Source of the DNA: an uncultured Acidimicrobiaceae bacterium
Lineage (GTDB): Bacteria; Actinomycetota; Acidimicrobiia; Acidimicrobiales; Bog-793
Direction: 5' to 3'
DNA length: 64,000 nt
Assembly: GCA_963761425.1 (NCBI GenBank)
Contig: CAVXGQ010000005.1
Coordinates: forward strand, 316,760-380,759
The notes under the pieces were generated by a model. It did no database searches. It had not been told where the DNA came from and saw only the letters and a program-made list of their open reading frames with translations. Of this stretch, positions 1-25,776 are shown one piece after another (position 1 is the stretch's first letter; each line of letters starts with the position of its first letter). The position numbers were made by a program, and so were the translations under genes.

Positions 1-1005
1 GACGCCCTCCTCGCCGGCACCACCACCATCATCGACCACCACGCCTCGCCGAATCTCATCGACGGTTCGCTCGACCTCGTCGCTGAGGCCCTCGGGGAAA
101 TCGGGGTCCGCTCGGTTTTGTGCTACGAGGTCACCGACCGGGACGGCCTGGAGCGGGCGGTCGCCGGCCTCGAGGAAAACCGGCGCTTCCTCGGCCGTCC
201 GCGTCTTCTCGCCCGGGGCATGGTCGGCGCCCACGCCTCATTCACCTTGTCCGACGAGACCCTGGGAGCCTGTGCGGAGCTGGCGGCCGATGCCGGCGTG
301 GGGGTGCACATCCACGTGGCCGAGGACCAGGTGGACGAGCAGGTCTGCCTGGGGCGCCACGCCCAACGGGTAGCGGACCGGCTCGCCGGTGCCGGCCTTC
401 TCAACGATCAGGCCCTCCTCGCCCACTGCGTGCACGTCGACGAGGCCGAGACCCGGCTCATCGAGTCGGCCGGGGCGACGGTGGTGTGCAACCCCCGCAG
501 CAACATGAACAACGGCGTGGGCCATTCCCCGTTCACCTGGCGCCCCGGGCCGGTGGTGTTGGGGACCGACGGGATCGGCGGGGACATGCTCGCCGAGTCG
601 CAGGCCGGGTTCTTTCGGGCCAAGGAGGCCGACCTCGCCACGCAGCCGGAGTGGCCTCTCGTCCGTCTGGCGGAAGGCGCCCGCCTGGCGGGCCGGATCT
701 ACGACGAGCCCCTCCTCGGCACCCTGCGACCCGGCGCGCCGGCCGATCTCTGTGTTCTCGCCTACGACCCGCCGACGCCACTCGGTGGCGACAATCTCGC
801 CGGGCACTGGGTGTTCGGCCTGACGGCCGGGAAGGTGCGCGACGTCTACGTGGCCGGGGAGCTGGTGATCGCCGAGGGACGGTCGACCCAGGTCGACGAG
901 GCCGAAGTCGCCGCCCGCGAGGTGCCGATCACCCGGGAGTTGTGGAGGCGCCTCGAGGCGACGCCGGCGCACACCTACGATCCGCGAAGGAGAAACGAGA
1001 AATGA
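1..1005 (+). CDS. ssnA: SsnA-like amidohydrolase (5'-truncated by window edge)
   Basis: Frame open from base 1 ([18 protein letters not shown]); [20 protein letters not shown] and LGTDG metal-site motifs; DHHASP is typical of SsnA. Confidence 0.8.
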
Positions 1006-1991
1006 GAGCTGCCCTCTACCTGCAGGACCTGCACCCGATCCGCGACGGCATGGCCTACGCGCGCTACGCCGAGGAACACGGCTTTGAGGCGGTCTGGCAG
1101 GCGGAGAGCCGCCTGGTGCGGGAGGCGACGGTGCCGATGGCGGCCTACGCCGCGGTCACCAGCCGCATCAAGGTGGCTTCGGGGGTCATCCCGATCTGGA
1201 CCCGCAACGTCGGGCTGCTCGCCGCGACCTTCTCCACCCTCGACGAGCTCGCCCCGGGGCGGGTGATCCTGGGACTGGGGGCCTGGTGGGAACCGCTGGC
1301 GGCCAAGGTGGGGGTCGACCGCCGCCGACCGCTCACCGCGATGCGCGAGGTGGTCGAGGCGACCCGGAAGCTCCTCGCCATGGAGCGGGTCACCTATCAC
1401 GGCGAGTTCGTGCACCTCGACGACGTGGAGATCGACATCGTGCACGGCGACCGCTCTCCGAAGCACGTGCCGATCTACGTCGGCGCCACCGGCATGCAGA
1501 TGATGGAGGTCGCCGCCGAGGTCGCTGACGGCGTGGTGCTCAACTACATGGTGAGCCCCGACTACAACCGGCAGGCCATGGAGCATCTCGCCATCGGTGC
1601 TGCCCGCGCCGGGCGGGTGCTCGCCGACCTCGACCGGCCCCAGCTGGTGGTGTGCTCGCTCGACCGGGACCGCCAGCTCGCCCTGGACCGCTCGCGTGAG
1701 CTCCTCACCCAATACCTCGGCCAACAGCCCCACATCATGAAGGCAAGCGGGGTCGACCCGGAGCTCATCGAGGCGATCGGCAAGGTCCTCACCTGGCCGG
1801 CGGGACCCGAGGAGATCCATCGGGCGATGCGGCTGGTGCCCGACGACGCGGTCCAGATGATCACCGCCTCCGGCACCCCGGAGGAGTGCCGGGCCAAGGT
1901 CGACGAATACCTGGCCGCCGGGGCCACCTGCCCGATCCTGTATCCGCTGGGCAGCGACGTGCGGCTGATGATCGACACCTTCGGCTCTTAG
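1002..1991 (+). CDS. LLM-class (luciferase-like, Mer-type) flavin/F420-dependent oxidoreductase
   Basis: ATG at 1002 overlaps the upstream stop; [31 protein letters not shown] and VPIYVGA are LLM motifs. Confidence 0.85.
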
Positions 1992-2020
1992 GGAGATCGG
2001 ACAGAGGAGGGAGCCACCAG

Positions 2021-2971
2021 ATGAGGAGCTTTGCCGGACGGGACATCCTGTCGCTCAAGGACTTCGAACGTGACGAGTACTTCGAGGTCTTCCGGGTGGC
2101 CGAGGAGCTGAAGCCCTACGCCGAACGGCGGGAGAACGGCGACCTGCTCTCCTCGAAGACCCTGCTCACCGCCTTCTACCAGCCGAGCACGCGAACCCGG
2201 TTGGCCACCGAGGCGGCGATGCACCGGCTGGGCGGGCACGTGCTCGGGTTCTCGGACGCCAAGATGACCCGCGCCGGCGACTTCTACCAGGAGAGCATCA
2301 AGGACACCGTGCACATGCTGGAGTACTACGGCGACGTCATCGCCATGCGCCACTTCGAGCGGGGTGCACCGGAGGAGGCGGCGCGGTGGGCCTCGGTGCC
2401 GGTCATCAACTGCGGCGACGGCTGGGGCGAGCACCCCACCCAGGTGCTCACCGACCTCTACACCATCTGGAAGGACAAGGGCACCCTCGACGGGCTGAAC
2501 CTGCTCTGCGTGGGGGACATGCGGATGCGCACCATGCACTCCCTCCTCTACGCCATGACCCAGTTCGACATGACCGCCTCGCTGGTGCACCCCCCGGAGA
2601 TGTCGCTGCTGCCCGAGTTCTCGGCCGAGCTCACCTCCCGGGGCGTCCGCTACCGGGAGGTCGAAAGCGTCGAGGGGTGCCTCGCCGAGGCGGACGTCAT
2701 CTACATGGAGCCGGTGGTGCAGGCCGACTACACGAAGTCCCGGGAAGAGGTGGGAAAGCACGGGAGAACCCCTGCCGCCTACCGGGTGACCAAGGAGCTC
2801 ATGGCGACCAAGGCGAAGTCCGACGCCATCATCCTGCACTCGCTGCCGAGGATGGACGAACTGCCCGCCGAGGTCGACAGCACCCACCACGCCCGCTACT
2901 GGTTCGAGGCCTTCAACGGCGTGGTGATGCGCATGGCGCTCTTGGCGCTGGTGCTCGGGGCCGTGGAGTAG
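2021..2971 (+). CDS. Aspartate-carbamoyltransferase-like transcarbamylase
   Basis: RBS GAGGAGG upstream; PSTRTR, HPTQ and HSLPR motifs. Confidence 0.85.
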   Translation: MRSFAGRDILSLKDFERDEYFEVFRVAEELKPYAERRENGDLLSSKTLLTAFYQPSTRTRLATEAAMHRLGGHVLGFSDAKMTRAGDFYQESIKDTVHMLEYYGDVIAMRHFERGAPEEAARWASVPVINCGDGWGEHPTQVLTDLYTIWKDKGTLDGLNLLCVGDMRMRTMHSLLYAMTQFDMTASLVHPPEMSLLPEFSAELTSRGVRYREVESVEGCLAEADVIYMEPVVQADYTKSREEVGKHGRTPAAYRVTKELMATKAKSDAIILHSLPRMDELPAEVDSTHHARYWFEAFNGVVMRMALLALVLGAVE

Positions 2972-2998
2972 GGCGAAAGACGACGAGGGAGAGGGACC

Positions 2999-3976
2999 AT
3001 GCAGACACACCTCCGGGGTCGCGACGTCATCGACTTCTCCGAGTGGACCAAGGACGAGATCGACACCGTGCTCGAGGTGGCGTTGGAGCTAAAGCGCGAT
3101 CGCGCCCTCGGTCGGGCGCATCCGCTGCTGCGGGACAAGGTCCTCGCCATGTTGTTCTTCTTCCCGAGCACCCGGACCCGGGCCTCGTTCGAGGCCGGAA
3201 TGGCGCAGCTCGGGGGACACGCCCAGTTCATCGAGTCCCGCACCACCCAGATCGCCCACGGTGACACCGCCAAGGAGATCGGTGAGATCCTCGGGCGCTA
3301 CAACGACGGGATCGCCATCCGCCACGTCGACTGGCTGGTGGGCAACACCTACCTGCGAGAAGTCGCCGAGGCGAGCCGGGTCCCGGTGCTCAACATGCAG
3401 TGCGACGTCTTCCACCCGCACCAGGCGCTGGCCGATCTCATGACCATCATCGAGCGCTTCGGCGACCCGCGGGGACGCACCGCCACGATCAGCTGGGCCT
3501 GTGCCGCCAGCTACCAGAAGCCGATCAGCGTCCCGCAGAGCCTGGCGCTCCTGCTGCCGCGCTATGGCCTCAACGTGCGCCTCGTCCACCCGCCGGAGTT
3601 CGAGCTTTCGCCGGAGGTGGTCGACCAGGCCCGGGAGGAGGCCGGCCGGGCCCACGTCTCGTTCGAGGTGTCCCACGACTTCGAGGAGGGGATCCGGGGA
3701 ACCGACGTCATCTACGCCAAGAGCTGGGGGGCGCTGCGAACGACGACGGACGAGGCCGAAGGGGCCAAGCTGATCGCCCGCTACGCCGACTGGATCACCG
3801 ACGCCCGCCGGGTGGCGCTCGCCAACGAGGACGCGATCTACATGCACCCCTTGCCGGCGGACCGAGGAGTGGAGGTCACCGACGAGGTGATCGACGGAGG
3901 GCACTCCGTCGTCTACGACCAGGCCGAGAATCGCCTGCACGGCCAGAAGGCCGTCATGGCGCTCACGATGGGCTAG
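2999..3976 (+). CDS. YgeW-like ornithine-carbamoyltransferase-family protein
   Basis: PSTRTR, HPHQ and MHPLPAD motifs; the SWACAASYQKPISVPQ loop and YAKSW resemble E. coli YgeW as I recall it (WAYSPSYGKPLSVPQ, YPKSW). Confidence 0.8.
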   Translation: MQTHLRGRDVIDFSEWTKDEIDTVLEVALELKRDRALGRAHPLLRDKVLAMLFFFPSTRTRASFEAGMAQLGGHAQFIESRTTQIAHGDTAKEIGEILGRYNDGIAIRHVDWLVGNTYLREVAEASRVPVLNMQCDVFHPHQALADLMTIIERFGDPRGRTATISWACAASYQKPISVPQSLALLLPRYGLNVRLVHPPEFELSPEVVDQAREEAGRAHVSFEVSHDFEEGIRGTDVIYAKSWGALRTTTDEAEGAKLIARYADWITDARRVALANEDAIYMHPLPADRGVEVTDEVIDGGHSVVYDQAENRLHGQKAVMALTMG

Positions 3977-3987
3977 TCGTCCGGGCG

Positions 3988-4938
3988 ATGGACGGCCGAC
4001 TGGTCGTGGTGGCGATCGGCGGGAACTCGCTGATCAAGGACCGGATGCACCAAGAGGTGCGGGACCAGTACATCGCGGCCCACGAGACCTCCGAGCACGT
4101 GGCGGCGATGGTCGCCGACGGCTGGGACGTGGTGATCGGCCACGGCAACGGCCCCCAGGTGGGCTTCATCCTGCGGCGTTCGGAGCTCGCCGCCCACGAG
4201 CTGCACGAGGTGCCGCTCGACGCCTGCGGGGCGGACTCCCAGGGGGCGATCGGCTACGCCCTGGCCCAGAACCTGCAGAACGTGCTGCGGCGGCGCGGCC
4301 TTCTTCGGCCGGTGGTGGCGGTCGTGACCCAGGTGGAGGTGGCGGCGGACGATCCCGCCTTCTCCCACCCCAGCAAGCCGATCGGCTCGTTCATGGACGA
4401 GGGCGAGGCGCGTCGGCGACGGGCCCAGGACGGCTGGGAGGTGGCGGAGGACGCCCACCGGGGTTGGCGCCGCGTGGTGGCCTCTCCCCGGCCGCGGCGG
4501 ATCGTGGAGCTCGAGGCGATCCGGACGCTCGTGGCGGCGGGGGTGATCGTGATCGGGGTCGGAGGCGGGGGGATCCCGGTGGTCGGCGACGCCGAGGGCG
4601 ACCTGCGGGGGGTGGAGGCGGTGATCGACAAGGATCTCGGGTGCTCGCTTCTCGCCCGGGACCTCGGGGCCGACCTCTTTTTGATCTCCACCGCGGTGGA
4701 GAAGGTGGCGCTCTACTTCGGCACCCCCGCCCAGCGCTGGGTGGACCATCTCACCCTCGACGAGGCCCGCCGGTATCTCGCCGAGGGCGTGCACTTCGCA
4801 GCGGGTTCCATGGCGCCGAAGGTCGAGGCGATCATCGAGTACCTCGAGCACGGGGGGAGCCACGCCATCGTCACCGACCCGCCGAACCTCGCCCGGGCGC
4901 TCGCCGGGCAAACGGGGACCCACTTCACCGTGGACTAG
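3988..4938 (+). CDS. arcC: Carbamate kinase
   Basis: VAIGGNSL, HGNGPQVG, KPIG, GWRRVVASP, GGGGIPV, EAVIDKD and GSMAPKVEA motifs. Confidence 0.95.
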   Translation: MDGRLVVVAIGGNSLIKDRMHQEVRDQYIAAHETSEHVAAMVADGWDVVIGHGNGPQVGFILRRSELAAHELHEVPLDACGADSQGAIGYALAQNLQNVLRRRGLLRPVVAVVTQVEVAADDPAFSHPSKPIGSFMDEGEARRRRAQDGWEVAEDAHRGWRRVVASPRPRRIVELEAIRTLVAAGVIVIGVGGGGIPVVGDAEGDLRGVEAVIDKDLGCSLLARDLGADLFLISTAVEKVALYFGTPAQRWVDHLTLDEARRYLAEGVHFAAGSMAPKVEAIIEYLEHGGSHAIVTDPPNLARALAGQTGTHFTVD

Positions 4939-5399
4939 AACCCTTTTGGTAATGCCCTGACGTCTGTGCTGGCCACGGGAGAATGTTTCTGTCGCTCGTG
5001 AGCTCGGTGTCTCGCGCGCGACCGCCTCGCAATGGTCAGCGGCCTTTCGGCAAGGTGGGCTCGAGGTCCTCGCCGGCGCCGGGCGTGCCGGGCGCCGGCC
5101 CCTGCTGACCGTTCGACAGCTTGCAGACGTCGAAGGGCGCTCGCAAGAACGGCTTGCCGACCGAGCTCTGGACGCTCGCCCGCGTTGCGAACGTGATCGA
5201 GACGACGACTGGCGTCTCGTATTCGACGACCCAGACGTGGTGGATCTCCCACGAGCACCTCGGGTGGTCGCGCCAGCGACCGGCGAGCAGGAGCTTCGAG
5301 CGCGACGAGGAGGCGGCCTTACTCGCGGCCGGTGGGTCGTCGGCGCGGACGTCAACCTCGGGCCCGTCCGCCCTTGTACGCCGGGGCACTCTCGCTTAG
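4936..5399 (+). mobile_element. Degenerate IS630-family remnant
   Basis: ORF 5121-5399 encodes WTLARVANVIETTTGVSYS...LGWSRQRP...ERDEEA (winged HTH of IS630 transposases); terminus-like sequence starts at the CTAG of the arcC stop; no DDE domain. Confidence 0.7.
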
Positions 5400-5545
5400 C
5401 GTTCACCAGTAGCTGGCGTCCTCTCCGCTCGATTGGTCAGCACGGACGAGTGAGATGTACTGAGGGTCGAAATGGGGCTCAACGGGCCAAATTCGCTCGC
5501 CTTCGGTCTCGTTCCCCTTGTTTCTCTAAGCCTCCCGGCTCGCTG

Positions 5546-6673
5546 ATGGCGAGGTCGGCGTGGGGCGAATCGGGAGACGAAGGAGACCTGCATCGCGCAC
5601 GAGTGCTTGCCGCACTGAGCCACGAGACCCCGGACCGCTGCCCATGGCAATCCACCTTCACCCCCGAGTTCGCCGAACGTCTGCGGGCTGATCTGCACCT
5701 CGGTGCGGCCGCCAGCGCACACAACCCGCACGGCGGCGGCAATCCGTATGACCTCGAGATGGCCCTCGACCAGGACGTTCTCATCACCTCGGTGGGCTGG
5801 GCGAACTCCTACTACGGGGAGGGCACTGAGTACGTCGACGAGTGGGGCGTCGGCTGGGTGTCGATGCCCTACACCACGCCCTTTGGCGTGGGTCACTACA
5901 CCGAGCCGCGCGTGCATCCGCTCGCCGACGCCGACGATGTCGCGCGCTACCGGCCACCTGACCCTGGCCGGCCGGAGCTCTACACGGACTCCGAACGGCT
6001 CATCGCCGAGCAAGGAGCCCGGTACTGGATCGTGGGATCCACCGTCACCACGATCTTCGAGACGGCCTGGGCGTTGCGCGGCCTCGAGCAGCTGCTCACC
6101 GACTTCATCGAAGACCCCGATCTTGCCGAGGCCATCCTCGACATCCCTTACCGCTACCATCTCGCCGCCGCCGAGACGCTCGTGCGAATGGGGGTGGACA
6201 TGATCTGGCTCGGTGACGACGTCGGGCACCAGCAAGGCATGCTCATTTCACCCCGCCACTGGCGGCGCTTCTTCAAGCCGCGGATGGCGCACATCATCGA
6301 GCGCCTGAAGGCCATCAACCCGGGTGTGAAGGTCGCCTACCACACCGACGGCTGCGTCTACGCGATCATTCCGGAGCTGATCGAGATCGGGCTCGACGTG
6401 CTCAACCCGATCCAGCCCGCCGCGATGGACCCTTCTCGGCTGAAGCGTGAGTACGGGAGCGAGCTGTGTTTCTGGGGATCGATGGATGAGCAGTACACGC
6501 TGCCGTTCGGCACTCCCGACCAAGTCCGCCAGGAGGTGCTCAGCCGGATCGCCACCCTCGGCGCCGGCGGTGGGCTAATCCTGGCGCCGACCCACCACCT
6601 GCAGCTCGATACGCCCCTCGAGAACTTCTGGGCCATGGTCGAGGCGGTCACCGGCCGTGCCCGCGTGCCCTGA
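5546..6673 (+). CDS. Uroporphyrinogen-decarboxylase-fold protein (methyltransferase-cluster type)
   Basis: RARVLAALSHETPDRCP, DEWG, AWALRG, GDDVG, YHTDG, LNPIQP and APTH motifs; start uncertain (ATG 5546, or CTG 5588 after GAAGGAG). Confidence 0.85.
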   Translation: MARSAWGESGDEGDLHRARVLAALSHETPDRCPWQSTFTPEFAERLRADLHLGAAASAHNPHGGGNPYDLEMALDQDVLITSVGWANSYYGEGTEYVDEWGVGWVSMPYTTPFGVGHYTEPRVHPLADADDVARYRPPDPGRPELYTDSERLIAEQGARYWIVGSTVTTIFETAWALRGLEQLLTDFIEDPDLAEAILDIPYRYHLAAAETLVRMGVDMIWLGDDVGHQQGMLISPRHWRRFFKPRMAHIIERLKAINPGVKVAYHTDGCVYAIIPELIEIGLDVLNPIQPAAMDPSRLKREYGSELCFWGSMDEQYTLPFGTPDQVRQEVLSRIATLGAGGGLILAPTHHLQLDTPLENFWAMVEAVTGRARVP

Positions 6674-6689
6674 GCCGGCCGGACGATCA

Positions 6690-8657
6690 GTGGACGGCGT
6701 CCGGCGAAAGGATTCCCAGAGCACGACGACGGCTGCGGCTGACCCCAGCACCGCGTCCCTCGTGCGGGTCGAGGTTCAGCCGATCGGCCGGCGGGTCGAA
6801 GTGAGTCGCGGTGCAACCGTGCTCGAGGCGGTTCGGGCTGGCGGCTTGGAGCTCGTCGCGGTCTGCGGTGGCCTTGGGCTGTGCGGTACCTGCCGGGTGA
6901 AGGTCGCCAACGGCGCATTTACGCCGCCGACCGGGCAGGAGCGCGAGCAACTGAGCCCGGCCGAGCTCTCCGGGGGGATTCGCCTGGCCTGCCAGGCTGC
7001 GGTGATGGCGGACGGGCGCGTCGAGGTTCCGCCCGAGTCGCTGACTACGCCGCAGCGTCTCCAGTTCGAGGGCTACGCGACGAACGTGGCGGTATTCGAC
7101 CCCGCGGTGGTCGCGCTCGACGTCGAGGTCCCGCCGCCGGCGCTCGACGATCTGCGGGGCGACGCGACTCGCCTGCGTGACGCGGTCACCGCGGCCGGTC
7201 AGCCGGTGAGGCAGACCAGTCTCTCGGTATTGACCTCGGCACCCCTCACCCTGCGCGCCCGCAACTGGGCGGTACGGGTGGCGGTGCACCGCGGTGCCGC
7301 CGGTGACATCGCTGGCGAGATCGTCGCCCTCCTCCCCGAGGGCAAAGTGCCGCTCGGCGCGGCAATCGATGTCGGCACTACGAAGCTGGCGGCCTACCTC
7401 GTCGATCTCGAGACCGGCGAGACGGTGGCCCAGGGCGCCGCCCCGAACCCACAGATTGCGATCGGCGAGGACGTCATGAGCCGAATCGCGTATGCCGACG
7501 CAGACGAGTCAGGCGCCCGGGATCTGCATGAGCGGCTGGTCGACGGCATCAACCAGCTGCTCGGTGAGTTGCGAGGCCAGATCGACGCGCCCGCGGGGCA
7601 GCTCGTCGAGGCGGTCGCGGTCGGCAACACGGCGATGCACCACGCCTTGGTCAATCTGCCGCTCCGCCAGCTCGGCCTGGCTCCGTACGTGCCGGCCGTG
7701 ACCGAGGCGCTCGAGCTGCGCAGCAGCGACCTCGGTCTCGACCTGGCGCCAGGCGCACGGACCTACCTCCCGCCGAACATCGCGGGCTTCGTCGGGGCGG
7801 ATCACACGGCCGTGCTGCTCGCAAGCGGTGCCGCCGAGACCACGCGCACGGTTCTGGTGCTCGACATCGGCACGAACACCGAGATCAGCGTGGCACGTGG
7901 CGGTCGTCTGTGGAGCTGCTCGTGCGCCTCGGGCCCCGCGTTCGAGGGCGCCCACATCCGCGACGTCATGCGGGCGGCAGAAGGAGCGATCGAGCGCGTG
8001 GAATACCTAGATGGCAGGTTCCAGGTCCATACCATCGGTGAGGGACCGCCGGTGGGGATCTGCGGCTCGGGCATCCTCGACGCGGTCGTCGCCACGCTCA
8101 AGGCAGGGATCGTGGACGGGCGCGGCGGCTTTTGCCGGACGCACCCGCTGGTCACCCGGTCCTCGGAGGGGCCAGCGTGCATCCTGGTCCCGGCCGCGCT
8201 CGCGGGGCACGGCCGCGACATTTTGCTCACCCGCACCGACATTGGCGAGATCCAGCTTGCCAAGGCCGCCATTCGGGCCGGCATCGAGTTGCTCTTCAGA
8301 GCGGCTGGCATTGAAGCCGACGCGCTCGATGAGATCATCATTGCCGGGGCTTTCGGCACCTATCTCAGTATCGCCAGCGCCATCGCGGTCGGCATGCTGC
8401 CCCGGCTGCCCCCGGAGCGCTATCGCCAGGTGGGTAACGCGGCCGGCCAGGGGGCCCGGCAACTGCTGGTCTCCCGGCAGTGGCGGGAGAAGGCGGACGA
8501 CATCGCGCGCCGGGTGCGCTATGTCGAGCTGACTACGCATCCGGACTTTGCCGATACCTTCACCGAAGAGTTGGCCTTCGGCCGGCGCCCGGAGGATTTC
8601 GAACCCGGAAAGATCCACGCGGGATCCGATGACCTACGAGAAGGAGGTGAGCCGTGA
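6690..8657 (+). CDS. ASKHA-type reductive activator of corrinoid proteins (RACo/DUF4445) with N-terminal 2Fe-2S domain
   Basis: CGGLGLCGTC...RLACQ, IDVGTT, GEDVMSRI, GFVGAD, DIGTNTE, GPAFEG, GICGSG and AGAFG motifs; start approximate. Confidence 0.9.
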   Translation: MDGVRRKDSQSTTTAAADPSTASLVRVEVQPIGRRVEVSRGATVLEAVRAGGLELVAVCGGLGLCGTCRVKVANGAFTPPTGQEREQLSPAELSGGIRLACQAAVMADGRVEVPPESLTTPQRLQFEGYATNVAVFDPAVVALDVEVPPPALDDLRGDATRLRDAVTAAGQPVRQTSLSVLTSAPLTLRARNWAVRVAVHRGAAGDIAGEIVALLPEGKVPLGAAIDVGTTKLAAYLVDLETGETVAQGAAPNPQIAIGEDVMSRIAYADADESGARDLHERLVDGINQLLGELRGQIDAPAGQLVEAVAVGNTAMHHALVNLPLRQLGLAPYVPAVTEALELRSSDLGLDLAPGARTYLPPNIAGFVGADHTAVLLASGAAETTRTVLVLDIGTNTEISVARGGRLWSCSCASGPAFEGAHIRDVMRAAEGAIERVEYLDGRFQVHTIGEGPPVGICGSGILDAVVATLKAGIVDGRGGFCRTHPLVTRSSEGPACILVPAALAGHGRDILLTRTDIGEIQLAKAAIRAGIELLFRAAGIEADALDEIIIAGAFGTYLSIASAIAVGMLPRLPPERYRQVGNAAGQGARQLLVSRQWREKADDIARRVRYVELTTHPDFADTFTEELAFGRRPEDFEPGKIHAGSDDLREGGEP

Positions 8658-9322
8658 CGGTCCTCGAGGAACTCCGCCAAGCGGTGATTGACGGCCAGGC
8701 GAAGCTCGCAGTCGCGAAGGCTGCCCAGGGTCTCGAGGAGGGAGTCTCCGCCGAGACCCTGCTGCAGGACGGGCTCATTGCGGCGATGAAGGAGGTGGGC
8801 CGCTTGTTCGAGGAGGGGGAGATCTTCGTACCCGAGATGCTGGTCGCCGCACGCGCGATGAAGGACACCGTGGCGCTGCTGAAGCCACTGATCGTCGACC
8901 ACGAGGCTCAGTCGAGCGGGACCGTCGCCATCGGCACGGTGCAGGGCGACCTGCACGATATCGGCAAGAACCTTGTGGCGATGATGCTCGAGGGTTCCGG
9001 CTTCGAAGTCGTCGACCTCGGCACCGACGTCCCGCCCGAACGCTTCGTCGACGCCATCCGGGAAGGGGCCGACGTCGTGGCGATGTCAGCGCTGCTCACG
9101 ACCACGATGACCAGCATGCAAGCCGTTGTCGAGGCGATCAGGCTCGCCGGTCTGCGCGACCGGGTTCGCATCGTCGTCGGCGGCGCGCCGATCACGGCCG
9201 CCTACGCAGGCGAGATCGGAGCTGACGGCTACGCGCCCGACGCTTCGAAGGCGGTGCGAAAGGTTGACGAGGTGTTGACCGATGCCCTGGGCGGCAGAGG
9301 AAGGCCCGATGGAGCGGTATGA
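8654..9322 (+). CDS. Corrinoid (B12-binding) protein, MtaC/MtbC type
   Basis: FVPEML cap domain; GTVQGDLHDIGKNLV (DxHxxG), SALLTTTM and GGAP motifs. Confidence 0.92.
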   Translation: MTVLEELRQAVIDGQAKLAVAKAAQGLEEGVSAETLLQDGLIAAMKEVGRLFEEGEIFVPEMLVAARAMKDTVALLKPLIVDHEAQSSGTVAIGTVQGDLHDIGKNLVAMMLEGSGFEVVDLGTDVPPERFVDAIREGADVVAMSALLTTTMTSMQAVVEAIRLAGLRDRVRIVVGGAPITAAYAGEIGADGYAPDASKAVRKVDEVLTDALGGRGRPDGAV

Positions 9323-10691
9323 CCAGCTCAGCATCTCGCACCCCGACGATCTCGTGTTCGGCCGCTGCCCGCGTCCGTTGTGCGTCGGGGGTCTCGCCAT
9401 CGGCGGAGGGGTCGTCTTTCCGGAGCTGAACTTCACCCTGCCGCCGATGGTGATCAACGAAGAGACGATGCCTCAGGTTCGTGACGAGTACCGGCAGATG
9501 ACCGAAGAGGCGTGTGCCCGGGCTGTCGCCCTCCAGGTACCCGGCCTGGTCGTCGAGCTGGAGCTACTGCCCGAGCTGACCCGCCGGCCGGAATGGGGCG
9601 CGGAGATCACGGCGACCCTGCGTGAGTGTCTCGACGCCCACGGATCGAGTCACGGGCTCAAAAGCGCGCTGCGCGTCACCCCGAACGACGTGCGTGACTT
9701 CCTGCGACCTCCCCTGATGCGCACGGGCAAGGAATGGGAGGAGATGGTGCGCAGCTTCGATCTGTGTGCGCTGGCCGGTGCGGACATGCTCTCGATTGAA
9801 TCCACCGGGGGCAAGGAGATCCACGACGATGCACTGCTCAACGGGGACCTGCCGGGGGCGCTGTTCGCCCTCGGTGTCCTGGCGTCTCGCGATATGGCAT
9901 TTCTCTGGGACATGGTCGTCGGTGTGGCCGAGCAGCGGCGGGTGATCGCGGCGGGCGACTCGGCGTGTGGCTTCGGTAACACCGCGATGGTCCTTGCTGA
10001 GGGCGGATTCATCCCCCGCGTCTGGGCGGCGGTGATCCGGGTGATGACCGTCGCGCGTAGCCTCGTCGCCTATGAGCGCGGCGCCACTGGCCCGAGCAAG
10101 GACTGCGCGTACGAAGGGCCGTTCCTCAAGGCGATCACGGGCTACCCGATCGCCATGGAGGGCGCCGAGGCCGCCTGCGCGCACCTGTCTCCGGTCGGCA
10201 ACATCGCCAAGGCGGCCGCCGACTTGTGGAGCAACGAGTCGGTGCAAAACGTCAAGCTCCTCGGCGGCATGGCGCCCACCGTCTCGATGGAGCAGCTCGC
10301 CTACGCCACCAGGCTGATGAACGTGGCGAGCGCGCACGGAAAGGCCGTCGAGCTGCGCGACTGGTTCGTCGAGTCCGATGCAGGACTGGACCCGCAGGCC
10401 TACGTCTTAAGGCCCGATGTCGTGGTCGAGTTGGCGGCGGCGATCATCGCCGAACCGACGCCCTATCTGCGCACCCGGCGCGCCGCGCTGGCGGCATTGG
10501 AGGCGCTGCGCGGCGCTGCCAGCGACGGCGCCTTCACCCTGTCGCCCGCCGAGCAGCGCTGGTTGATGCGCCTGTCGGCGCAGGCCGAAGAACTACCCGA
10601 ACAGGAGGATCTCTTCATCGAAGAGATGGCGAGCCACATCGATAGGCAGAAGGTACGCCTCGATCAGTACGACCTTGAGGAGATTACGTGA
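9309..10691 (+). CDS. mtaB: MtaB-family methanol:corrinoid methyltransferase
   Basis: DDLVFG...IGGGVVFPELNF, SIESTGGKE, GDSACG, GPSKDCAYE, AACAH and DLWSNESV motifs; the putative Zn ligands Glu/Cys/Cys are retained. Confidence 0.85.
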   Translation: MERYDQLSISHPDDLVFGRCPRPLCVGGLAIGGGVVFPELNFTLPPMVINEETMPQVRDEYRQMTEEACARAVALQVPGLVVELELLPELTRRPEWGAEITATLRECLDAHGSSHGLKSALRVTPNDVRDFLRPPLMRTGKEWEEMVRSFDLCALAGADMLSIESTGGKEIHDDALLNGDLPGALFALGVLASRDMAFLWDMVVGVAEQRRVIAAGDSACGFGNTAMVLAEGGFIPRVWAAVIRVMTVARSLVAYERGATGPSKDCAYEGPFLKAITGYPIAMEGAEAACAHLSPVGNIAKAAADLWSNESVQNVKLLGGMAPTVSMEQLAYATRLMNVASAHGKAVELRDWFVESDAGLDPQAYVLRPDVVVELAAAIIAEPTPYLRTRRAALAALEALRGAASDGAFTLSPAEQRWLMRLSAQAEELPEQEDLFIEEMASHIDRQKVRLDQYDLEEIT

Positions 10692-10787
10692 CCGCCAGAG
10701 AAAGGCCGGCAGCTCGGCTTCGAGACCACATCGCCGCGCCGGATCGTTGGTGTCGGCCGCGGCCGAACGAGCAACGGGGGTGATTTG

Positions 10788-11825
10788 ATGGACTCGATCG
10801 AGCGGGTAGGGACCACGATCGCGCTGCGTGAGCCGGATCGTGTGCCAGTGGATCTACACAACTTCCAGCTCGCAGCGCGCGCCAGCGGCTTGCCGATGTC
10901 GCAGGTCTTCCGTGACGGAGCGCTGCTGGCCGAGGCCATGCTGGCGGCCTGGCGCGAATTCGGCCACGACATGATCCTCTTGGAGAACGGCACCGCCTGC
11001 AACGCCGAGGCCTGCGGCGTGGAGGTCCACTACCGCGATGACACCGCGCCAGTGGCCGGCCGTCCCCTTCTCGATTCCCTCGCCAAGGTGGGTGATCTGC
11101 AGGTGCCAGATCCCTATGTCACCTTCCCCATGTCCGAGATCCTCAAGGCGACCCGCATCCTCGCCCGCGAGATCGGTGACAAGGCCTGGATCTGCGCGCG
11201 TGCAGACCAAGGGCCGATGGACCTGGCGGCACAGCTTCGCGGCATGAGCGAATTCATGATGGATTTGGCCACTGGCGAAGAGGAGGAGCTGATCCAGGCG
11301 CTGCTCGACTTCGCGAGGCGCGTCGCGACGCGTTATGCCTACGCCCTGATCGAGTGCGGTGGTCGCTCCACCTCGATCGGCGAGCCGATGGCCGGGCCGG
11401 CCATGATCTCGCCACGGCACTACCGCCGGTATCCCTGGGCTCATGAGCGCCGCATGGTCGCCGAGCTCAAGGACCACGGCATCATCTTGCACCTGCACAT
11501 CTGTGGAGACACCGAGCGGATTACCGAGGATTTCATCTCGACCGGGGCGCCGGTGCTGGAGATCGACCACAAGACGGACGCGGCACGCCTCAAGGCGAAA
11601 GCGCGGACCACGACGTGCCTGCTCGGCAATATCGACACGAACCTCCTCGCACTCGGGACGCCCGACGAAGTTGACGCCTCCTGCCGCGAGCTCATCGAGA
11701 TCTGCAAGCCCGGCGGCGGCTTCATCCTCGGCCCGGGGTGTGCCATGGCCCCGACCACCCCGGCCGAGAACATTCATGCGCTCGTGGAGTCGGCAAAGAA
11801 GTACGGCTCTTACCGGAGTAGGTGA
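10788..11825 (+). CDS. MtaA/CmuA-like methylcobamide:thiol methyltransferase (UroD fold)
   Basis: PDRVPV, AEACG, HLHICG (H-x-C) and GPGC Zn motifs, LGNID. Confidence 0.8.
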   Translation: MDSIERVGTTIALREPDRVPVDLHNFQLAARASGLPMSQVFRDGALLAEAMLAAWREFGHDMILLENGTACNAEACGVEVHYRDDTAPVAGRPLLDSLAKVGDLQVPDPYVTFPMSEILKATRILAREIGDKAWICARADQGPMDLAAQLRGMSEFMMDLATGEEEELIQALLDFARRVATRYAYALIECGGRSTSIGEPMAGPAMISPRHYRRYPWAHERRMVAELKDHGIILHLHICGDTERITEDFISTGAPVLEIDHKTDAARLKAKARTTTCLLGNIDTNLLALGTPDEVDASCRELIEICKPGGGFILGPGCAMAPTTPAENIHALVESAKKYGSYRSR

Positions 11826-14634: not shown

Positions 14635-15093
14635 TCAGCTACCCGCCGCGAGATGAACCGCGTCGATGATCTTCTGGTAGCCGGTGCAGCGGCAGAGGTT
14701 TCCGGAGAGAGCCTCGCGGATCTGCGCGTCGTCGGGAACGGTGACCCGCCGGAGCAGATCGTGGGTGGCCATGACGAAGCCGGGGGTGCAGAACCCGCAC
14801 TGGACGGCGCCCGCTTCGACGAAGGCCCGCTGGATGGAATCGAGCGTCCCCTCGGGGGAGAGCCCCTCGACTGTCACGACAGCCCGGCTCTCGGCTTGAC
14901 CGGCGGGGACGAGACAGGCGCAGACGAGCAGGTCGTCGAGGTAGACGGAGCACGATCCGCACTCGCCCTGTTCGCAGGCGTTCTTCGTGCCCACGAGGCC
15001 GAGCTCGTCGCGCAACAGGCTGAGCAGGCTGGCGCCCTCCTCGACGCCATCGGCGACGCGGAGCTGGCCGTTGACGGTCAACGAGACCCTCAT
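14635..15093 (-). CDS. Xanthine-dehydrogenase-family 2Fe-2S subunit
   Basis: CEQGECGSC, QCGFCTPG and GNLCRCTGY motifs. Confidence 0.95.
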   Translation of the reverse strand: MRVSLTVNGQLRVADGVEEGASLLSLLRDELGLVGTKNACEQGECGSCSVYLDDLLVCACLVPAGQAESRAVVTVEGLSPEGTLDSIQRAFVEAGAVQCGFCTPGFVMATHDLLRRVTVPDDAQIREALSGNLCRCTGYQKIIDAVHLAAGS

Positions 15094-15962
15094 GGGGCGT
15101 TCCCCCGGTACTCCTCCCAGCACCACGAAAGGGCGCGCCGGGCGAGGACCTCGAGCGCATGCCGTCGGTAGGCGGCCGAACCGCGCACGTCGTCGATCGG
15201 TCTCGCCGCTTCGGCGACCAGGCGGGCGAAATGGTCGATCACGGCGTCAGAAAGAGCCGGCCGCGCTTCCCACGCGCCGATCTCGCCGAGATGCTCCTCG
15301 AGGAACTCCTCGGCCAGCCGGGCTGGCAACGGCACCGGTCCGGCGGAGCCGATCCCGGTACCGACACGGCCGATTTCGGGGTGGAGAGCCAGTGAGAACG
15401 AGCAGATCGCGATGACCATGGCATTGCGCGATCCCACCTTGGAAAAGGTCTGGGGACCGCTCGCCGTCGGGACCCACACCGCGGCGATCAGCTCGTCTGG
15501 ACGAAGGACGCTGCGTTTCGGACCGGAGAAGTATTCGGCGACGGGGACGGTCCGGCTGGCGTGGAGGGAGGCGAGCTCGACCTCGGCGCGACAGGCGAGC
15601 AGTGGCGGGTGGCAATCCCCGGCGGGGGACGCCGAGCCGAGGTTGCCACCGATCGTGCCGCGGTTGCGGATCGGCGGGGAACCGACGGTGCGAGCAGCGG
15701 TGGCGAGGCCGGGGAGGTCGCCGGCGAGGTCAGCGATGATCGTCGAGTAGGTGACCCCGGAGCCCACCCGGACCTGCCCGTTCTCCCGGCCAAAGGTGCG
15801 CAGCTCGTCAAGCTGCGACAGATCAAGGAAGGCCGGCGGACGGAGACGACCGAAGTTGCACTCGACCATGACGTCGGTGCCGCCGGCGACGACCACGGCC
15901 TCGGGGTGTGCGGATCGTTCGGCGAGCGCCTCCGCCCAGCTCGTCGGCCGGATGAACGTCAT
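15090..15962 (-). CDS. Xanthine-dehydrogenase-family FAD-binding subunit
   Basis: AGGTD, IRNRGTIGGNLGSASPAGD and PIDDVRGSAAYRR motifs. Confidence 0.93.
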   Translation of the reverse strand: MTFIRPTSWAEALAERSAHPEAVVVAGGTDVMVECNFGRLRPPAFLDLSQLDELRTFGRENGQVRVGSGVTYSTIIADLAGDLPGLATAARTVGSPPIRNRGTIGGNLGSASPAGDCHPPLLACRAEVELASLHASRTVPVAEYFSGPKRSVLRPDELIAAVWVPTASGPQTFSKVGSRNAMVIAICSFSLALHPEIGRVGTGIGSAGPVPLPARLAEEFLEEHLGEIGAWEARPALSDAVIDHFARLVAEAARPIDDVRGSAAYRRHALEVLARRALSWCWEEYRGNAP

Positions 15963-16044
15963 GGCGCCATGGTGCCACCGCACCATGGCCTCACCCGGGA
16001 CGCGCTCAAAGGACCACGTCGCATCGAAAAAGATTCCGCGCGGT

Positions 16045-18435: not shown

Positions 18436-18515
18436 CGGCGCTCTCTCGGCGTGAACCCTAGCGGGCCGGTCGCGCCAGCTTGTCGGGGTGCGGGAGGGCC
18501 ATCGCGAGGAGGCGG

Positions 18516-19673
18516 TTACGAGCCGGGTTGGTGGATGGGCCCCTCCGTGGCATGGAGCGGCGAGCCGGCGTGGTCCCGAGTGTGTGAGGCGATGATCTCG
18601 GCGCAGATGGAGACCGCGGTCTCTTCGGGGGTGCGTGCCCCGATGTCGAGACCGATCGGCGCTCTGATCCGGGACATCGCGGTCGCGTCCACCCCGGCCT
18701 CGCGTAGCCGCCTTCTCCGCTCGGCCGTCGTCCGGCGAGACCCCATGGCCCCGATGTAGCCGACCCGGGTGCCGAGGGCGGCGACCAGGGCCGGTACGTC
18801 GAACTTGGGATCGTGGGTGAGGACGCAGATGGCGTCCCGTTCGCCCAGCGTTGGCCCGACCGTCGCCAGGTGGCGGTCGGGCCAGTCGACAACGACTTCG
18901 TCAGCCGAGGGGAACCGGTCCGCCGTGGCGAAGACGGGGCGGGCGTCGCACACCGTGACCTGGTAACCGAGGATCTTGGCCACCTTGACGAGGGCGGCGG
19001 TGAAGTCCACCGCTCCGAAGATGACCATGCGCGGTGGTGCCGCGAAGGCCTCGATGAAGACCGCCACGTCCTGGAGGCGGGCCTCCCCCCGGGGGCCGTA
19101 GCGGCGAATCGCGGTCGTGCCGGCGTCGAGGTGACCGAGCGCGTCCCGCCGTACCGCATCGTCGAGGTCCGGCGGGCCCAGCGAGCCGAGCGACCGGCCA
19201 TCCGGCCGCACGAGCATCGTCGCCCCGGGCACGGCCAAGAGATCGTCTCTTTCCTCATGTCCGGCCGGGCTGTTGATCTCGACCACGGTGGCCAGCGCCA
19301 CCGGTTGACGCGCGGACAGGTGCTCGCGCAGCACTTCAAGGAGCCGGTCTCCCCACCCTTGGGGTCCCAGCGGCTCGACGAACAGTCGGACGGTCCCACC
19401 ACAGGTGAGGCCGACGGCGAAGGCTTGGTCATCGGAATAGCCGAAAGTCGACAGATGCGGTTTCCCGGTCGCCAGCACTTCGAGCGCGTCGGATACCACC
19501 GCCGACTCCACGCACCCCCCGGAGACCGACCCGGCGACCTCGCCGTCCTCGCTCACGGCCATCGAGGCTCCCGGTTCGCGGGGGGCCGAACCTTCGACGC
19601 CCACCACTCGGGCCAGCGCCACCTGTCGACCCGCCTGCCGCCACCGGTCGATTTGGTCGAGGAGCTCTTCCAC
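18516..19673 (-). CDS. xdhC: XdhC/CoxI-family Moco insertion protein
   Basis: GSAPREPGA, GSVSGGCVE, VGLTCGG, LTHDPKFD, YIGAMGSR and PIGLDIGARTPEETA motifs; GTG start inferred. Confidence 0.92.
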   Translation of the reverse strand: MEELLDQIDRWRQAGRQVALARVVGVEGSAPREPGASMAVSEDGEVAGSVSGGCVESAVVSDALEVLATGKPHLSTFGYSDDQAFAVGLTCGGTVRLFVEPLGPQGWGDRLLEVLREHLSARQPVALATVVEINSPAGHEERDDLLAVPGATMLVRPDGRSLGSLGPPDLDDAVRRDALGHLDAGTTAIRRYGPRGEARLQDVAVFIEAFAAPPRMVIFGAVDFTAALVKVAKILGYQVTVCDARPVFATADRFPSADEVVVDWPDRHLATVGPTLGERDAICVLTHDPKFDVPALVAALGTRVGYIGAMGSRRTTAERRRRLREAGVDATAMSRIRAPIGLDIGARTPEETAVSICAEIIASHTRDHAGSPLHATEGPIHQPGS

Positions 19674-19882
19674 CGGGTAGAGCGTAAGGGTGCCGCGGAA
19701 AAGCTGCCACGCGCGATTCACCCCGGGCATGGCCCAGAGCGGCGGCCTCTTCGTCGAGCCGCCACGCCGCAGAATCTGGCTGATCCGGGTCGGAGCCGGG
19801 CCGCGGGCCCCCGCGACCGGGTCCTCGATTCCCCGGCCAGGCGGTTTTGTCTCGGGCGGTGCGGCCTACGATCGAAGGCGCG

Positions 19883-24565: not shown

Positions 24566-25776
<1,211 letters not shown>

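Follow-up and report, generated by a model that had tools for sequence, protein, structure and literature searches.

A candidate variant of reductive urate degradation with an F420-type oxidoreductase and two carbamoyltransferases in an Acidimicrobiaceae bacterium

We propose, with moderate confidence, that an operon of an uncultured Acidimicrobiaceae bacterium and the genes diverging from it upstream encode a variant of the reductive (2,8-dioxopurine/yanthine) pathway of urate degradation, in which a luciferase-like oxidoreductase (LLM) would replace YgfK, an ATCase-like carbamoyltransferase (TcA) would replace YgeY, and a pair of PLP enzymes would replace YgeX. If this is true, both urea-like groups of urate may yield ATP, and three E. 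coli enzymes are swapped. A sequence-only reading of the same DNA had suggested the first two substitutions, and homology, gene context, phylogeny and absences support them. The F420 swap (Li et al. 2025, Chloroflexota) and the pairing of a pseudo-ATCase with ygeW (Barba et al. 2013) are already in print; the arrangement looks very widespread.

The window, a stretch of 64,000 nucleotides, opens inside the ssnA homologue: the whole gene (G000:C5:316406-317764) starts 353 bases upstream. The five genes at its beginning (Table 1) are as tightly packed as first described, all on the plus strand and with spacers of at most 29 bases: the stop of ssnA and the start of LLM overlap by 4 bases, and 29 bases separate LLM from TcA, 27 TcA from TcB, and 11 TcB from the carbamate kinase (CK). 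Since GC at the third codon position is 0.89-0.93 in the ssnA, TcA and TcB frames, in a genome of 68% GC, these are real genes. The five form the 3' part of an operon whose eight genes all point the same way: NCS1 permease, CysK-like PLP enzyme, ThrC-like PLP enzyme, SsnA, LLM, TcA, TcB and CK. The earlier reading turned on whether ygfK and ygeY lie just upstream. Neither does: besides the permease and the two PLP enzymes, this part of the contig holds hyuA, xdhD-ygfM homologues, a second Mo-hydroxylase and two purine deaminases (an adenine deaminase and an 8-oxoguanine-type deaminase), all divergent from the operon.

Table 1. Features of the window, with positions counted from its first letter
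Feature	Position	Strand	Predicted role or character
ssnA homologue, C-terminal 334 of 452 aa	1..1005	+	candidate ring-opening amidohydrolase
LLM, luciferase-like oxidoreductase, F420 type	1002..1991	+	candidate 2,8-dioxopurine (yanthine) reductase in place of YgfK/UacX
TcA, ATCase-like "pseudo-ATCase" carbamoyltransferase	2021..2971	+	candidate for N-alpha (2-) ureido phosphorolysis
TcB, short YgeW-clade carbamoyltransferase	2999..3976	+	candidate for 3-ureido phosphorolysis of 2,3-diureidopropionate
Carbamate kinase (CK), YqeA/ArcC type	3988..4938	+	carbamoyl phosphate + ADP -> ATP
Gene D	44345-45397		keeps K84, R105, H134, Q137, R167, R229

Six E. coli uricolytic enzymes have homologues in the locus: XdhD (36% identity), YgfM (31%), HyuA (43%), SsnA (36% over 421 aa), YgeW, as TcB (33% over 347 aa), and YqeA, as CK (47%). 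HyuA obtains 474 bits on TIGR02033 (cut-off 393), and CK 379.4 bits on NF009007 (cut-off 266) and 357.7 on TIGR00746, just below the cut-off of 358.25; the full SsnA, with 398.6 bits on NF005540, is below the cut-off of 444. The predicted absence of ygeY and ygfK extends to the whole assembly, which is 91.5% complete: the best match to the YgeY profile has 45 bits (cut-off 321.5), the best match to YgeX has 49 (cut-off 276), and YgfK finds only partial GltD-like matches of at most 295 bits (cut-off 835). Each of YgfK, YgeY and YgeX has a putative non-homologous counterpart within the operon, respectively LLM, TcA and the PLP pair. Neither uricase nor OHCU decarboxylase was found in the genome, so an oxidative urate route is not evident.

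In the following scheme, all substrates, the dependence on F420, the sequence of the two phosphorolyses and the yield of ATP are inferred from homology and gene context. An XdhD-YgfM-type enzyme would reduce urate to 2,8-dioxopurine, which LLM would dearomatise with F420H2, replacing YgfK/UacX, while the translationally coupled SsnA would open the ring and draw the LLM reaction forward. HyuA would open the ring of the hydantoin to give 2,3-diureidopropionate. The two ureido groups would be phosphorolysed by one enzyme each, TcB most probably attacking the 3-ureido and the ATCase-derived TcA the N-alpha 2-ureido, a step for which E. coli has the hydrolase YgeY. For each urate, the carbamate kinase could then form as many as two ATP, where E. 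coli gains one, and one or both PLP enzymes, replacing YgeX, would turn 2,3-diaminopropionate into pyruvate and ammonia. Stereochemistry counts against this scheme: the products of D-hydantoinases are D-configured, and ATCases act on L-aspartate.

TcA reaches 248.3 bits on the ATCase profile TIGR00670, over the cut-off of 236.95. In 21 of 21 orthologues it keeps S52, T53, R54, T55, R105, H134, Q137 and R167, and has P in place of R229 and S in place of P266; K84 is Y in the four TcA rows displayed, and for Q231 the substitute is V or T according to the alignment used. The carbamoyl-phosphate site is kept, and the aspartate residues K84, R229 and Q231 are gone. By comparison, R167, R229 and Q231 are present in every one of 20 aligned canonical PyrBs, of which 14 come from genomes that also have TcA. 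In two trees, TcA is moreover a clade by itself, separate from canonical PyrB (SH-aLRT 100 and 99). The separation from canonical PyrB on which the sequence-only reading depended is thus observed in both tree and residues, and the latter make it unlikely that TcA carbamoylates aspartate.

Orthologues of TcA and TcB occur in an identical set of 29 of the 300 genomes sampled from the class. Less than 1 kb separates the two genes in 28 of these, and 11.8 kb in the remaining one; the distance is about 0.9 kb in 10 of the 29, with opposite strands in those loci examined. These 29 genomes contain neither YgeY nor YgeW over cut-off; all have an SsnA-like gene, and 22 have HyuA over cut-off, which was not found at that level in the other 7. 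The companions of TcA at 20 of these loci are CK (18 loci), the CysK-like enzyme (16), a ThrC-like enzyme (14 plus 2) and SsnA (11). The two PLP enzymes are conserved though one lyase would suffice, and neither matches YgeX. The same gene order recurs in one congener and one member of the same family. A survey of named species gave 80 loci, 54 of at least 15 kb; in these large loci the commonest set around TcA is SsnA, LLM, TcB and CK (17 of 54), and TcB is missing near TcA in 12. Because a YgeY-like M20 gene appears in 3 of the 54 (4 of 80 overall), one case being without TcB, TcA does not strictly exclude YgeY. The survey of neighbourhoods proposed earlier thus reveals one that is kept across many genomes.

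TcB is under every NCBIfam cut-off (OTC 255 against 306, AOTC 236 against 288, YgeW 166.6 against 453) and about 70 aa shorter than YgeW. It has the motifs N[LM]QCD, SY[GQ]KP[LI]SVPQ and Y[PA]KSW in common with YgeW, does not have the OTC motifs DxxxSMG and GDxNNV, and lies inside the clade containing E. coli YgeW (SH-aLRT 98 and 96 in two trees). The original label "YgeW-like" thus holds by motifs and tree, and fails by the YgeW HMM cut-off. That low score and short length leave some room for another view: the twin carbamoyltransferases may act on other ureides (allantoate/ureidoglycine, oxalurate, or carbamoylated products of the PLP enzymes), the lower half of the operon not being equivalent to YgeW/YgeY. 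The two PLP enzymes left over, the 7 of 29 TcA genomes with no HyuA over cut-off, and the phosphorolysis of allantoate by a subgroup-1 pseudo-ATCase (Barba et al. 2013) would fit. We nevertheless consider this unlikely: uricase and OHCU decarboxylase were not found in this genome, TcA has the motif HSLP and not the HPLA given for subgroup 1 in Table 1 of Barba et al., all 29 genomes with TcA have an SsnA-like gene (within the locus in 11 of the 20 examined), and the motifs common to TcB and YgeW are the distinctive substrate-side motifs of the latter.

LLM matches Pfam Bac_luciferase (PF00296) with 232 bits. Its best subfamily is the F420-dependent Mer, at 162.5 bits (cut-off 276), and its top 16 NCBIfam matches are all F420-dependent LLM families, none reaching cut-off; LLM and SsnA are both under all equivalog cut-offs. 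Solved LLM relatives at E<=1e-10 are F420 enzymes in 8 of 8 cases (6 Mer sequences, 2 FGD), and CofD and CofH are present, both over their cut-offs. Orthologues with 65-74% identity occur in 42 of the 300 sampled genomes; in 20 loci chosen from these 42 for long contigs, ssnA adjoins the orthologue in 16 and an 884-aa Mo-hydroxylase is nearby in 18. An LLM orthologue is lacking from 25 of the 29 genomes with TcA and TcB, and the gene occurs within none of the 20 TcA loci examined, so that the LLM swap and the TcA/TcB swap are independent modules.

The missed subfamily cut-offs would also suit an LLM that serves some other F420-linked step, dearomatisation being left to an enzyme encoded elsewhere. 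GltD-like matches number five in the rest of the genome, beside a single weak match to DHO_dh, and on contig C4 a GltD-like gene could form another reductase with the latter; furthermore, two LLM orthologues, in L079 and L080, both from TcA-bearing genomes, are without ssnA. We regard this arrangement as rather improbable in view of the ssnA-LLM adjacency, which extends to named loci from several groups, and of the overlap of the two genes. Where ssnA has no neighbouring LLM, a YgfK gene or YgfK-like piece takes the adjacent slot (L049, L051, L053, L054, L055), and the reductase must be coupled to SsnA according to Li et al. 2025 (PMC12507026).

TcA and TcB could also assemble into a single heteromeric carbamoyltransferase. 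It would cleave only one of the ureido groups, and the second would be removed by a further hydrolase or leave as urea. The strict co-occurrence of the two genes and their 27-base spacer would agree with this, as would the loss of K84 in TcA: in ATCase, this lysine is supplied to the active site by the neighbouring chain. However, both proteins have a complete carbamoyl-phosphate site (STRT, R105, HPxQ), known transcarbamylases are, to our knowledge, homotrimers, and no ureidohydrolase candidate was found in the operon. The large named loci with TcA and no nearby TcB, and the wider, opposite-strand spacing in some genomes, do not suggest obligatory co-assembly, and we give such a heteromer little credence.

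Canonical pyrB is missing in the genus: the pyrR-pyrC interval has none on an uninterrupted contig, and a search with gene D as query finds nothing besides TcA and D itself in any of the 8 congeners. An anabolic role is therefore conceivable for TcA, which matches ATCase better than any other gene of the genome and exceeds the TIGR00670 cut-off. That TcA is the plain aspartate carbamoyltransferase of the organism is very improbable, with K84, R229 and Q231 replaced, R229 even in genomes that keep canonical PyrB, with a catabolic operon and a carbamate kinase around it, and with a better candidate in gene D, by virtue of its residues (Table 1) and its 84-89% conservation in 8 of 8 congeners.

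The reductive urate pathway described for E. coli and Clostridium sporogenes comprises XdhD-YgfM, YgfK, SsnA, HyuA, YgeW, YqeA, YgeY and YgeX (PMC12507026; bioRxiv 10.1101/2025.04.24.650524), and the E. coli pathway from which the sequence-only reading started agrees with these accounts by Li et al. 2025 and Liu et al. 2025; in the latter, YgeW and YqeA make ATP from the diureido intermediate. The present locus likewise joins XdhD, YgfM, SsnA, HyuA, YgeW (TcB) and YqeA homologues with purine deaminases and a nucleobase permease, and places a carbamoyltransferase immediately before the carbamate kinase, as in the ATP-forming pair YgeW/YqeA. It differs in the shorter TcB, and in that the places of YgfK, YgeY and YgeX are taken by the F420-type LLM, by TcA with its ATCase ancestry, and by a pair of unrelated PLP enzymes. 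In Chloroflexota, a reductase of the F420 luciferase family has been proposed to do the work of YgfK/UacX (Li et al. 2025, PMC12507026), and there too it is a PF00296 protein beside SsnA; the main text of that paper names the swap for this phylum only and does not mention a second carbamoyltransferase. Here the relatives are labelled Actinomycetota, LLM and ssnA are neighbours in 16 of 20 loci, and the swap is joined with twin carbamoyltransferases.

Barba et al. 2013 (PMC4016543) describe a subgroup 2 of pseudo-ATCases, with no function proposed at the time, in Nocardioides sp. JS614, beside a ygeW homologue, xdh genes and hyuA. Like these, TcA is annotated as ATCase, adjoins a YgeW homologue, has STRT, HPTQ and H[ST]LP, and has lost the RXQ aspartate motif; the subgroup 2 motif "GX[SC]" has no unambiguous match in TcA. 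A Nocardioides-labelled locus (L176) has a TcA of 74% identity in the order SsnA-LLM-TcA-TcB-YgfM-XdhD-HyuA. Subgroup 1, represented by the assayed ureidoglycine carbamoyltransferase Rxyl_2847 of Rubrobacter, differs in its motifs (HPLA and AIA/AIS/SIA) and in its allantoate substrate, which belongs to the oxidative pathway. Finally, the arginine deiminase pathway, with its catabolic OTC and carbamate kinase, gains substrate-level ATP from carbamoyl phosphate released by phosphorolysis of a ureido group, as proposed here; the substrate is another one, and in the present operon two different carbamoyltransferases would feed one kinase.

The five genes that open the window, namely ssnA, the gene for LLM (a luciferase-like oxidoreductase), TcA (an ATCase-like protein), TcB (a second carbamoyltransferase) and CK (carbamate kinase), are indeed as tightly packed as the sequence-only reading described them: the start of LLM shares 4 bases with the stop of ssnA, and gaps of 29, 27 and 11 bases precede TcA, TcB and CK. 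A scan of window positions 1-5700 returns no promoter-like site and three terminator-like ones, all intragenic, where 1.3 +/- 1.1 are expected by chance. The carbamate kinase scores 379.4 bits with the NF009007 model, whose cut-off is 266, and belongs to that family. In a search of sequencing runs, the DNA matches are coded as freshwater-sediment and soil metagenomes, and no RNA run is among the matches listed.

The rest of the neighbourhood is read from the 18.8 kb that lie 5' of the window in the same assembly (GCA_963761425.1, here G000: 2.28 Mb in six contigs, 68% GC, 91.5% complete).

Features of the window and of related loci in G000 (C3, C4 and C5 are contigs of the assembly; scores are in bits, against the family cut-off)
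Feature	Location	Direction	Score vs cut-off	Remarks
884-aa Mo-hydroxylase	C5:302151-304805	divergent	TIGR03311 819 vs 830	
D-hydantoinase HyuA	C5:308766-310127	divergent	TIGR02033 474.1 vs 393.25	about 6.6 kb 5' of window
XdhD-like Mo/Fe-S protein, 1156 aa	5' of window	divergent	TIGR03313 686 vs 1102	
YgfM-like FAD subunit	5' of window	divergent	TIGR03312 104 vs 241	adjoins the XdhD-like ORF
8-oxoguanine-deaminase-like	5' of window	divergent	527.7 vs 532	
Adenine deaminase	5' of window	divergent		
MocA-like transferase	5' of window	divergent		
NCS1 nucleobase permease	5' of window	as the five genes		
CysK-like PLP enzyme, 513 aa	5' of window	as the five genes		
ThrC-like PLP enzyme, 476 aa	5' of window	as the five genes		
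ssnA, last 334 codons	window 1-1005	+		gene starts upstream of window
LLM	window 1002-1991	+		
TcA, ATCase-like	window 2021-2971	+		
TcB, second carbamoyltransferase	window 2999-3976	+		
CK	window 3988-4938	+		
Methanol:corrinoid methyltransferase operon	window 5237-11825	+		MtaA-like URO-D protein, RACo-type reductive activator, MtaC-like corrinoid protein, MtaB, second MtaA-like
Third Mo hydroxylase	window 14635-20353			2Fe-2S (163 aa), FAD (298 aa) and MoCo (796 aa) subunits; XdhC/CoxI maturation factor; MoaE
Mobile DNA	window 24566-25690, 36281-37339, 46360-52329			rve-type integrase, IS110-family transposase, two tyrosine recombinases, two ArdC-like, ERCC4 nuclease
Gene D, divergent ATCase-like	window 44345-45397	+	TIGR00670 175 vs 237	
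pyr operon	C3:52717-59250			pyrR-pyrC-carA-carB
GltD-like gene and DHO_dh match	C4:420279-426284			3.6 kb apart

The 884-aa Mo-hydroxylase narrowly misses the cut-off of the "selenium-dependent xanthine dehydrogenase" family; since no selD gene over cut-off is found in the whole genome (best 52 bits against 125), its dependence on selenium is doubtful. Searches of family models and of PDB sequences give only distant matches, CysK-like and ThrC-like, for the two PLP enzymes. The third Mo hydroxylase may belong to the same purine supercluster, as its conventional xanthine dehydrogenase. The methyltransferase operon that comes next after CK, with an MtaB that matches PF12176 at 531 bits, is unrelated to the purine genes. 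Close relatives of this bacterium carry the label Acidimicrobiaceae, which makes the operon unexpected here. It recurs at 90-95% identity in one other locus (L121), and is absent from the corresponding stretch of a congener, G304.

In the account of Li et al. 2025 (PMC12507026), XdhD-YgfM turn urate into 2,8-dioxopurine by reduction; YgfK or UacX dearomatises 2,8-dioxopurine, only when coupled to SsnA; HyuA yields 2,3-diureidopropionate, one ureido group of which is phosphorolysed by YgeW and the other hydrolysed by YgeY; and YgeX cleaves diaminopropionate. Formation of ATP by YgeW with YqeA is shown by Liu et al. 2025 (bioRxiv). The two accounts disagree on the target of YgeW, the 3-ureido group for Liu et al. 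and the 2-ureido group for Li et al., and Percudani 2025 (PMC12990295) lists the ureido group attacked by YgeW as an open question.

Compared with the proteins of the E. coli K-12 uricolytic cluster, the locus contains a homologue of XdhD with 36% identity over 1001 aa, of YgfM (31%), of HyuA (43%), of SsnA (36%; the best family of the full protein is NF005540, at 398.6 bits, under the equivalog cut-off of 444), of YgeW (TcB, 33%) and of YqeA (CK, 47%), so that six of the nine uricolytic enzymes of E. coli are represented. The XdhD-YgfM-type Mo enzyme is present by identity, its scores being below the NCBIfam cut-offs, and the HyuA hydantoinase, over its cut-off here, is common to both systems. 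The other three enzymes are missing. The sequence-only reading proposed to look upstream for hyuA and ygeX and for the absence of ygeY and ygfK: hyuA is there, and profile scores place YgeY, YgeX and full-length YgfK nowhere in the genome, itself 91.5% complete. The best matches reach 45 bits against 321.5 for YgeY, 49 against 276 for YgeX, and 295 against 835 for YgfK, the latter confined to model positions 433-936, the GltD-like part. Each of these three enzymes is matched by a non-homologous candidate in the operon: LLM for YgfK, TcA for YgeY, and the PLP enzymes for YgeX. An oxidative route via allantoate is not evident, as neither uricase nor OHCU decarboxylase is found in G000.

The evidence on LLM points to an F420 enzyme. 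It matches PF00296 (Bac_luciferase) at 232 bits, and its top 16 NCBIfam matches are all F420 LLM families, with scores that stay under the curated subfamily cut-offs (Mer, the best, 162.5 against 276; TIGR03841, 125.6 against 213.65). All eight solved LLM relatives at E<=1e-10 are F420 enzymes, either Mer or FGD, and G000 has F420 synthesis genes over cut-off: CofD, 312 against 257, and CofH, 471 against 374. Among 300 other sampled genomes of the class, 42 have orthologues with 65-74% identity. In 20 of these, chosen for their long contigs, ssnA adjoins LLM 16 times, and the 884-aa Mo-hydroxylase has an orthologue in the locus, at 65-73% identity, 18 times. In TcA loci without LLM, the neighbour of ssnA is YgfK, as a gene or as a similar piece, as in L051 (TIGR03315, 907 against 835). 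The adjacency to ssnA, the presence of YgfK at the same position elsewhere, the F420-enzyme relatives and the CofD and CofH genes together support LLM as a stand-in for YgfK, with F420 as its predicted cofactor and the YgfK substrate as its predicted substrate.

Another ring reductase may be encoded elsewhere in the genome. A search of G000 with the DHO_dh model returns PyrD and one match of 42 bits on another contig, close to the GltD-like gene that gave the 295-bit YgfK match. These two genes may form a dihydropyrimidine dehydrogenase of the PreT/PreA-like kind, in which case they would be a candidate ring reductase other than LLM.

The designation of TcB as "YgeW-like" stands on clade and motifs, and not on family score. 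TcB is below every cut-off: 166.6 against 453 for the YgeW model NF005538 and 158.8 against 500 for TIGR03316; 255 against 306 for OTC and 236 against 288 for AOTC; and 241.3 with the OTC model TIGR00658, under 280.85. The ornithine motifs are missing, AKSWGALR replacing DxxxSMG, and the protein reads HPLP versus the HCLP of OTC; a plain OTC, AOTC or PTC is rejected by these cut-offs and motifs. TcB and E. coli YgeW have in common the motifs N[LM]QCD, SY[GQ]KP[LI]SVPQ, Y[PA]KSW and IAHG[ED]T, while three insertions of E. coli YgeW are missing from TcB. YgeW itself is reportedly a knotted (trefoil) protein. A tree places TcB in the clade of E. coli YgeW with an SH-aLRT of 98, on long branches. 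In a denser tree, to which 25 representatives from a search of the whole library were added, the 12-row clade (SH-aLRT 96) that contains TcB also contains the E. coli protein and a YgeW-like representative.

TcA scores 248.3 with the ATCase model TIGR00670, over the cut-off of 236.95, and 218 with NF002032, under 263; its nearest solved relative is the ATCase of Pyrococcus abyssi. The phylogeny proposed by the sequence-only reading sets it apart from canonical PyrB: TcA proteins form a single clade outside both PyrB clades, with an SH-aLRT of 100, and of 99 in a second tree. In an alignment of 21 orthologues, with E. coli numbering, S52, T53, R54, T55, R105, H134, Q137 and R167 are invariant, and residues for aspartate are lost: R229 becomes P in every one of the 21, Q231 becomes V in one alignment and T in another, and K84, in the 80s loop, becomes Y in four aligned TcA rows. 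P266 is S throughout the 21. Each of the 20 canonical PyrBs aligned has R167, R229 and Q231; 14 of these PyrBs come from genomes that also have TcA. As motifs, TcA has STRT, HPTQ and HSLP, and PVV where RXQ is expected; a GX[SC] at the RXQ position is alignment-dependent, G000 TcA having TKS, and two orthologues GKS, a few residues downstream.

Could TcA nevertheless be the aspartate carbamoyltransferase of this bacterium? TcA sits between LLM and TcB, and the pyr operon, on a different contig, has no canonical pyrB: at the position that pyrB occupies in a complete genome from the same taxonomic order, there are some 130 bases, none of them N. We examined the question with local tblastn and synteny, and with tblastx for lower-GC relatives, where GC3-filtered ORF calling misses genes. 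The only other ATCase-like gene of G000 is gene D, 30% identical to TcA, which keeps K84, R105, H134, Q137, R167 and R229, and keeps neither Q231 nor L267. Gene D is conserved at 84-89% in all eight congeners, and searches with D show D and TcA only. The kept residues and this conservation make D a likelier ATCase than TcA: D is likely, from these comparisons, the replacement for canonical pyrB, and TcA is unlikely to act anabolically in this genus. The idea that D is the passenger of a mobile island is rejected by its presence in eight of eight congeners; four of these have both genes on one contig, with 8-16 kb between D and TcA. In G000, 42 kb separate D from the purine operon, with mobile DNA between.

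The neighbourhood survey also agrees with the sequence-only reading. Orthologues of TcA (62-75% identity) and of TcB (64-76%) occur in an identical set of 29 of the 300 sampled genomes of the class, less than 1 kb apart in 28 of them and 11.8 kb apart in one; G212, G254 and G275, within the same sample, have neither. Around the 20 TcA loci examined among these 29, we count CK 18 times, the CysK-like PLP enzyme 16 times, the ThrC-like one 14 times, plus two of the G000 type, SsnA 11 times, and LLM not once. Over the whole genomes, YgeY and YgeW are over cut-off in none of the 29, HyuA in 22, and an SsnA-like gene is present at E<=1e-60, under cut-off, in all. An LLM orthologue exists in only four of the 29, each time on another contig, and none of the 29 has the gene order of G000. 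That order, PLP-PLP-SsnA-LLM-TcA-TcB-CK, is kept identically in two members of G000's family, the congener G304 and G311, and G310, of the same family, has a rearranged version. Since LLM and TcA/TcB occur apart in the class sample, they are separate modules, combined in G000's family. One TcA/TcB genome also carries, at G279:C132:1015-3479, a closer YgeW-like gene (315 against 500) beside an M20 gene (142 against 321.5), a pair that could represent an additional lower module of the E. coli kind.

A one-genome-per-species scan with the TcA alignment as query finds confirmed relatives in at least 582 genomes. The best 80 of these have 72-86% identity, and are labelled Actinomycetota, Chloroflexota, Planctomycetota, Spirochaetota, Verrucomicrobiota and others. 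Among these best 80, 54 loci are at least 15 kb long: TcB is found in 42 of them, CK in 39, SsnA in 38 and LLM in 29, and the commonest combination around TcA, with 17 loci, is SsnA+LLM+TcB+CK. However, TcA has no TcB nearby in 12 of the 54, and a YgeY-like M20 gene is present in four of the best 80 loci, which cut against a strict replacement rule. Such loci come from other phyla: in L189, a YgeY-like M20 peptidase directly precedes TcA in a locus without TcB; in L148, another is found together with TcA, TcB and CK.

The division of labour between the two carbamoyltransferases can be conjectured from their families. AOTC and SOTC, which are relatives of YgeW, target the side-chain nitrogen of an N-alpha-acylated ornithine, ATCase works on a four-carbon amino acid, at its N-alpha, and M20 enzymes such as YgeY are typically hydrolases of N-alpha-carbamoyl amino acids. 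By its relationship to the side-chain enzymes, TcB would phosphorolyse the 3-ureido group, on a substrate whose N-alpha carries a carbamoyl. TcA, in which R167, the ligand of the alpha-carboxylate, is still present and those of the beta-carboxylate are gone, would then act on the N-alpha ureido group of 3-amino-2-ureidopropanoate; replacing YgeY by TcA would be chemically coherent, since M20 enzymes also work on N-alpha-carbamoyl groups. Both carbamoyl phosphates could feed CK. If the ATCase-derived enzyme takes the N-alpha ureido group and the YgeW/AOTC-type enzyme the side-chain one, the specificities of TcA and TcB would settle the cleavage order of the gut pathway; family logic favours the order of Liu et al.

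As far as computation goes, the sequence-only reading of this operon, a variant of reductive urate degradation with two transcarbamylases and an LLM reductase, is supported, and the G000 operon represents an environmental version of the pathway that is far more widespread. Our broader conjecture, held with slightly more doubt than belief, is that soil and sediment bacteria of several phyla carry out an O2-independent uricolysis that departs from the gut pathway on three points: F420H2 drives it, both ureido groups are recovered as carbamoyl phosphate by two dedicated carbamoyltransferases of different ancestry, for two ATP per urate, and it ends with a new PLP pair. If this is true, purine fermentation gains a second substrate-level phosphorylation, F420 gains a role in purine catabolism, a family routinely annotated as aspartate carbamoyltransferase gains a function, and the ureido group attacked by YgeW-type enzymes becomes open to a direct test.

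To our knowledge, it took until 2025 to solve the reductive urate pathway, and then for gut bacteria only. The pathway itself is already known, the F420 swap has been hinted at in print, and the pairing of a pseudo-ATCase with YgeW was seen in 2013. The two-carbamoyltransferase variant appears in none of the titles and abstracts listed by full-text literature searches, and the literature searched yielded no mention of double phosphorolysis or of the PLP pair. Among the closest known systems are the proteins that Barba et al. 2013 (PMC4016543) call pseudo-ATCases. Their subgroup 1 was assayed, and is an allantoate-phosphorolysing ureidoglycine carbamoyltransferase; subgroup 2, from Nocardioides sp. 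JS614, was given no function, and its neighbours are xdh genes, hyuA and a homologue of ygeW. TcA has in common with subgroup 2 the motifs STRT, HPTQ and H[ST]LP, the last as HSLP, and the loss of RXQ; for the GX[SC] motif of that subgroup, TcA offers no unambiguous match. TcA likewise adjoins a ygeW homologue, TcB, with homologues of xdhD, ygfM and hyuA upstream. A locus labelled Nocardioides, L176, reads SsnA-LLM-TcA-TcB-YgfM-XdhD-HyuA, with a TcA 74% identical to that of G000.
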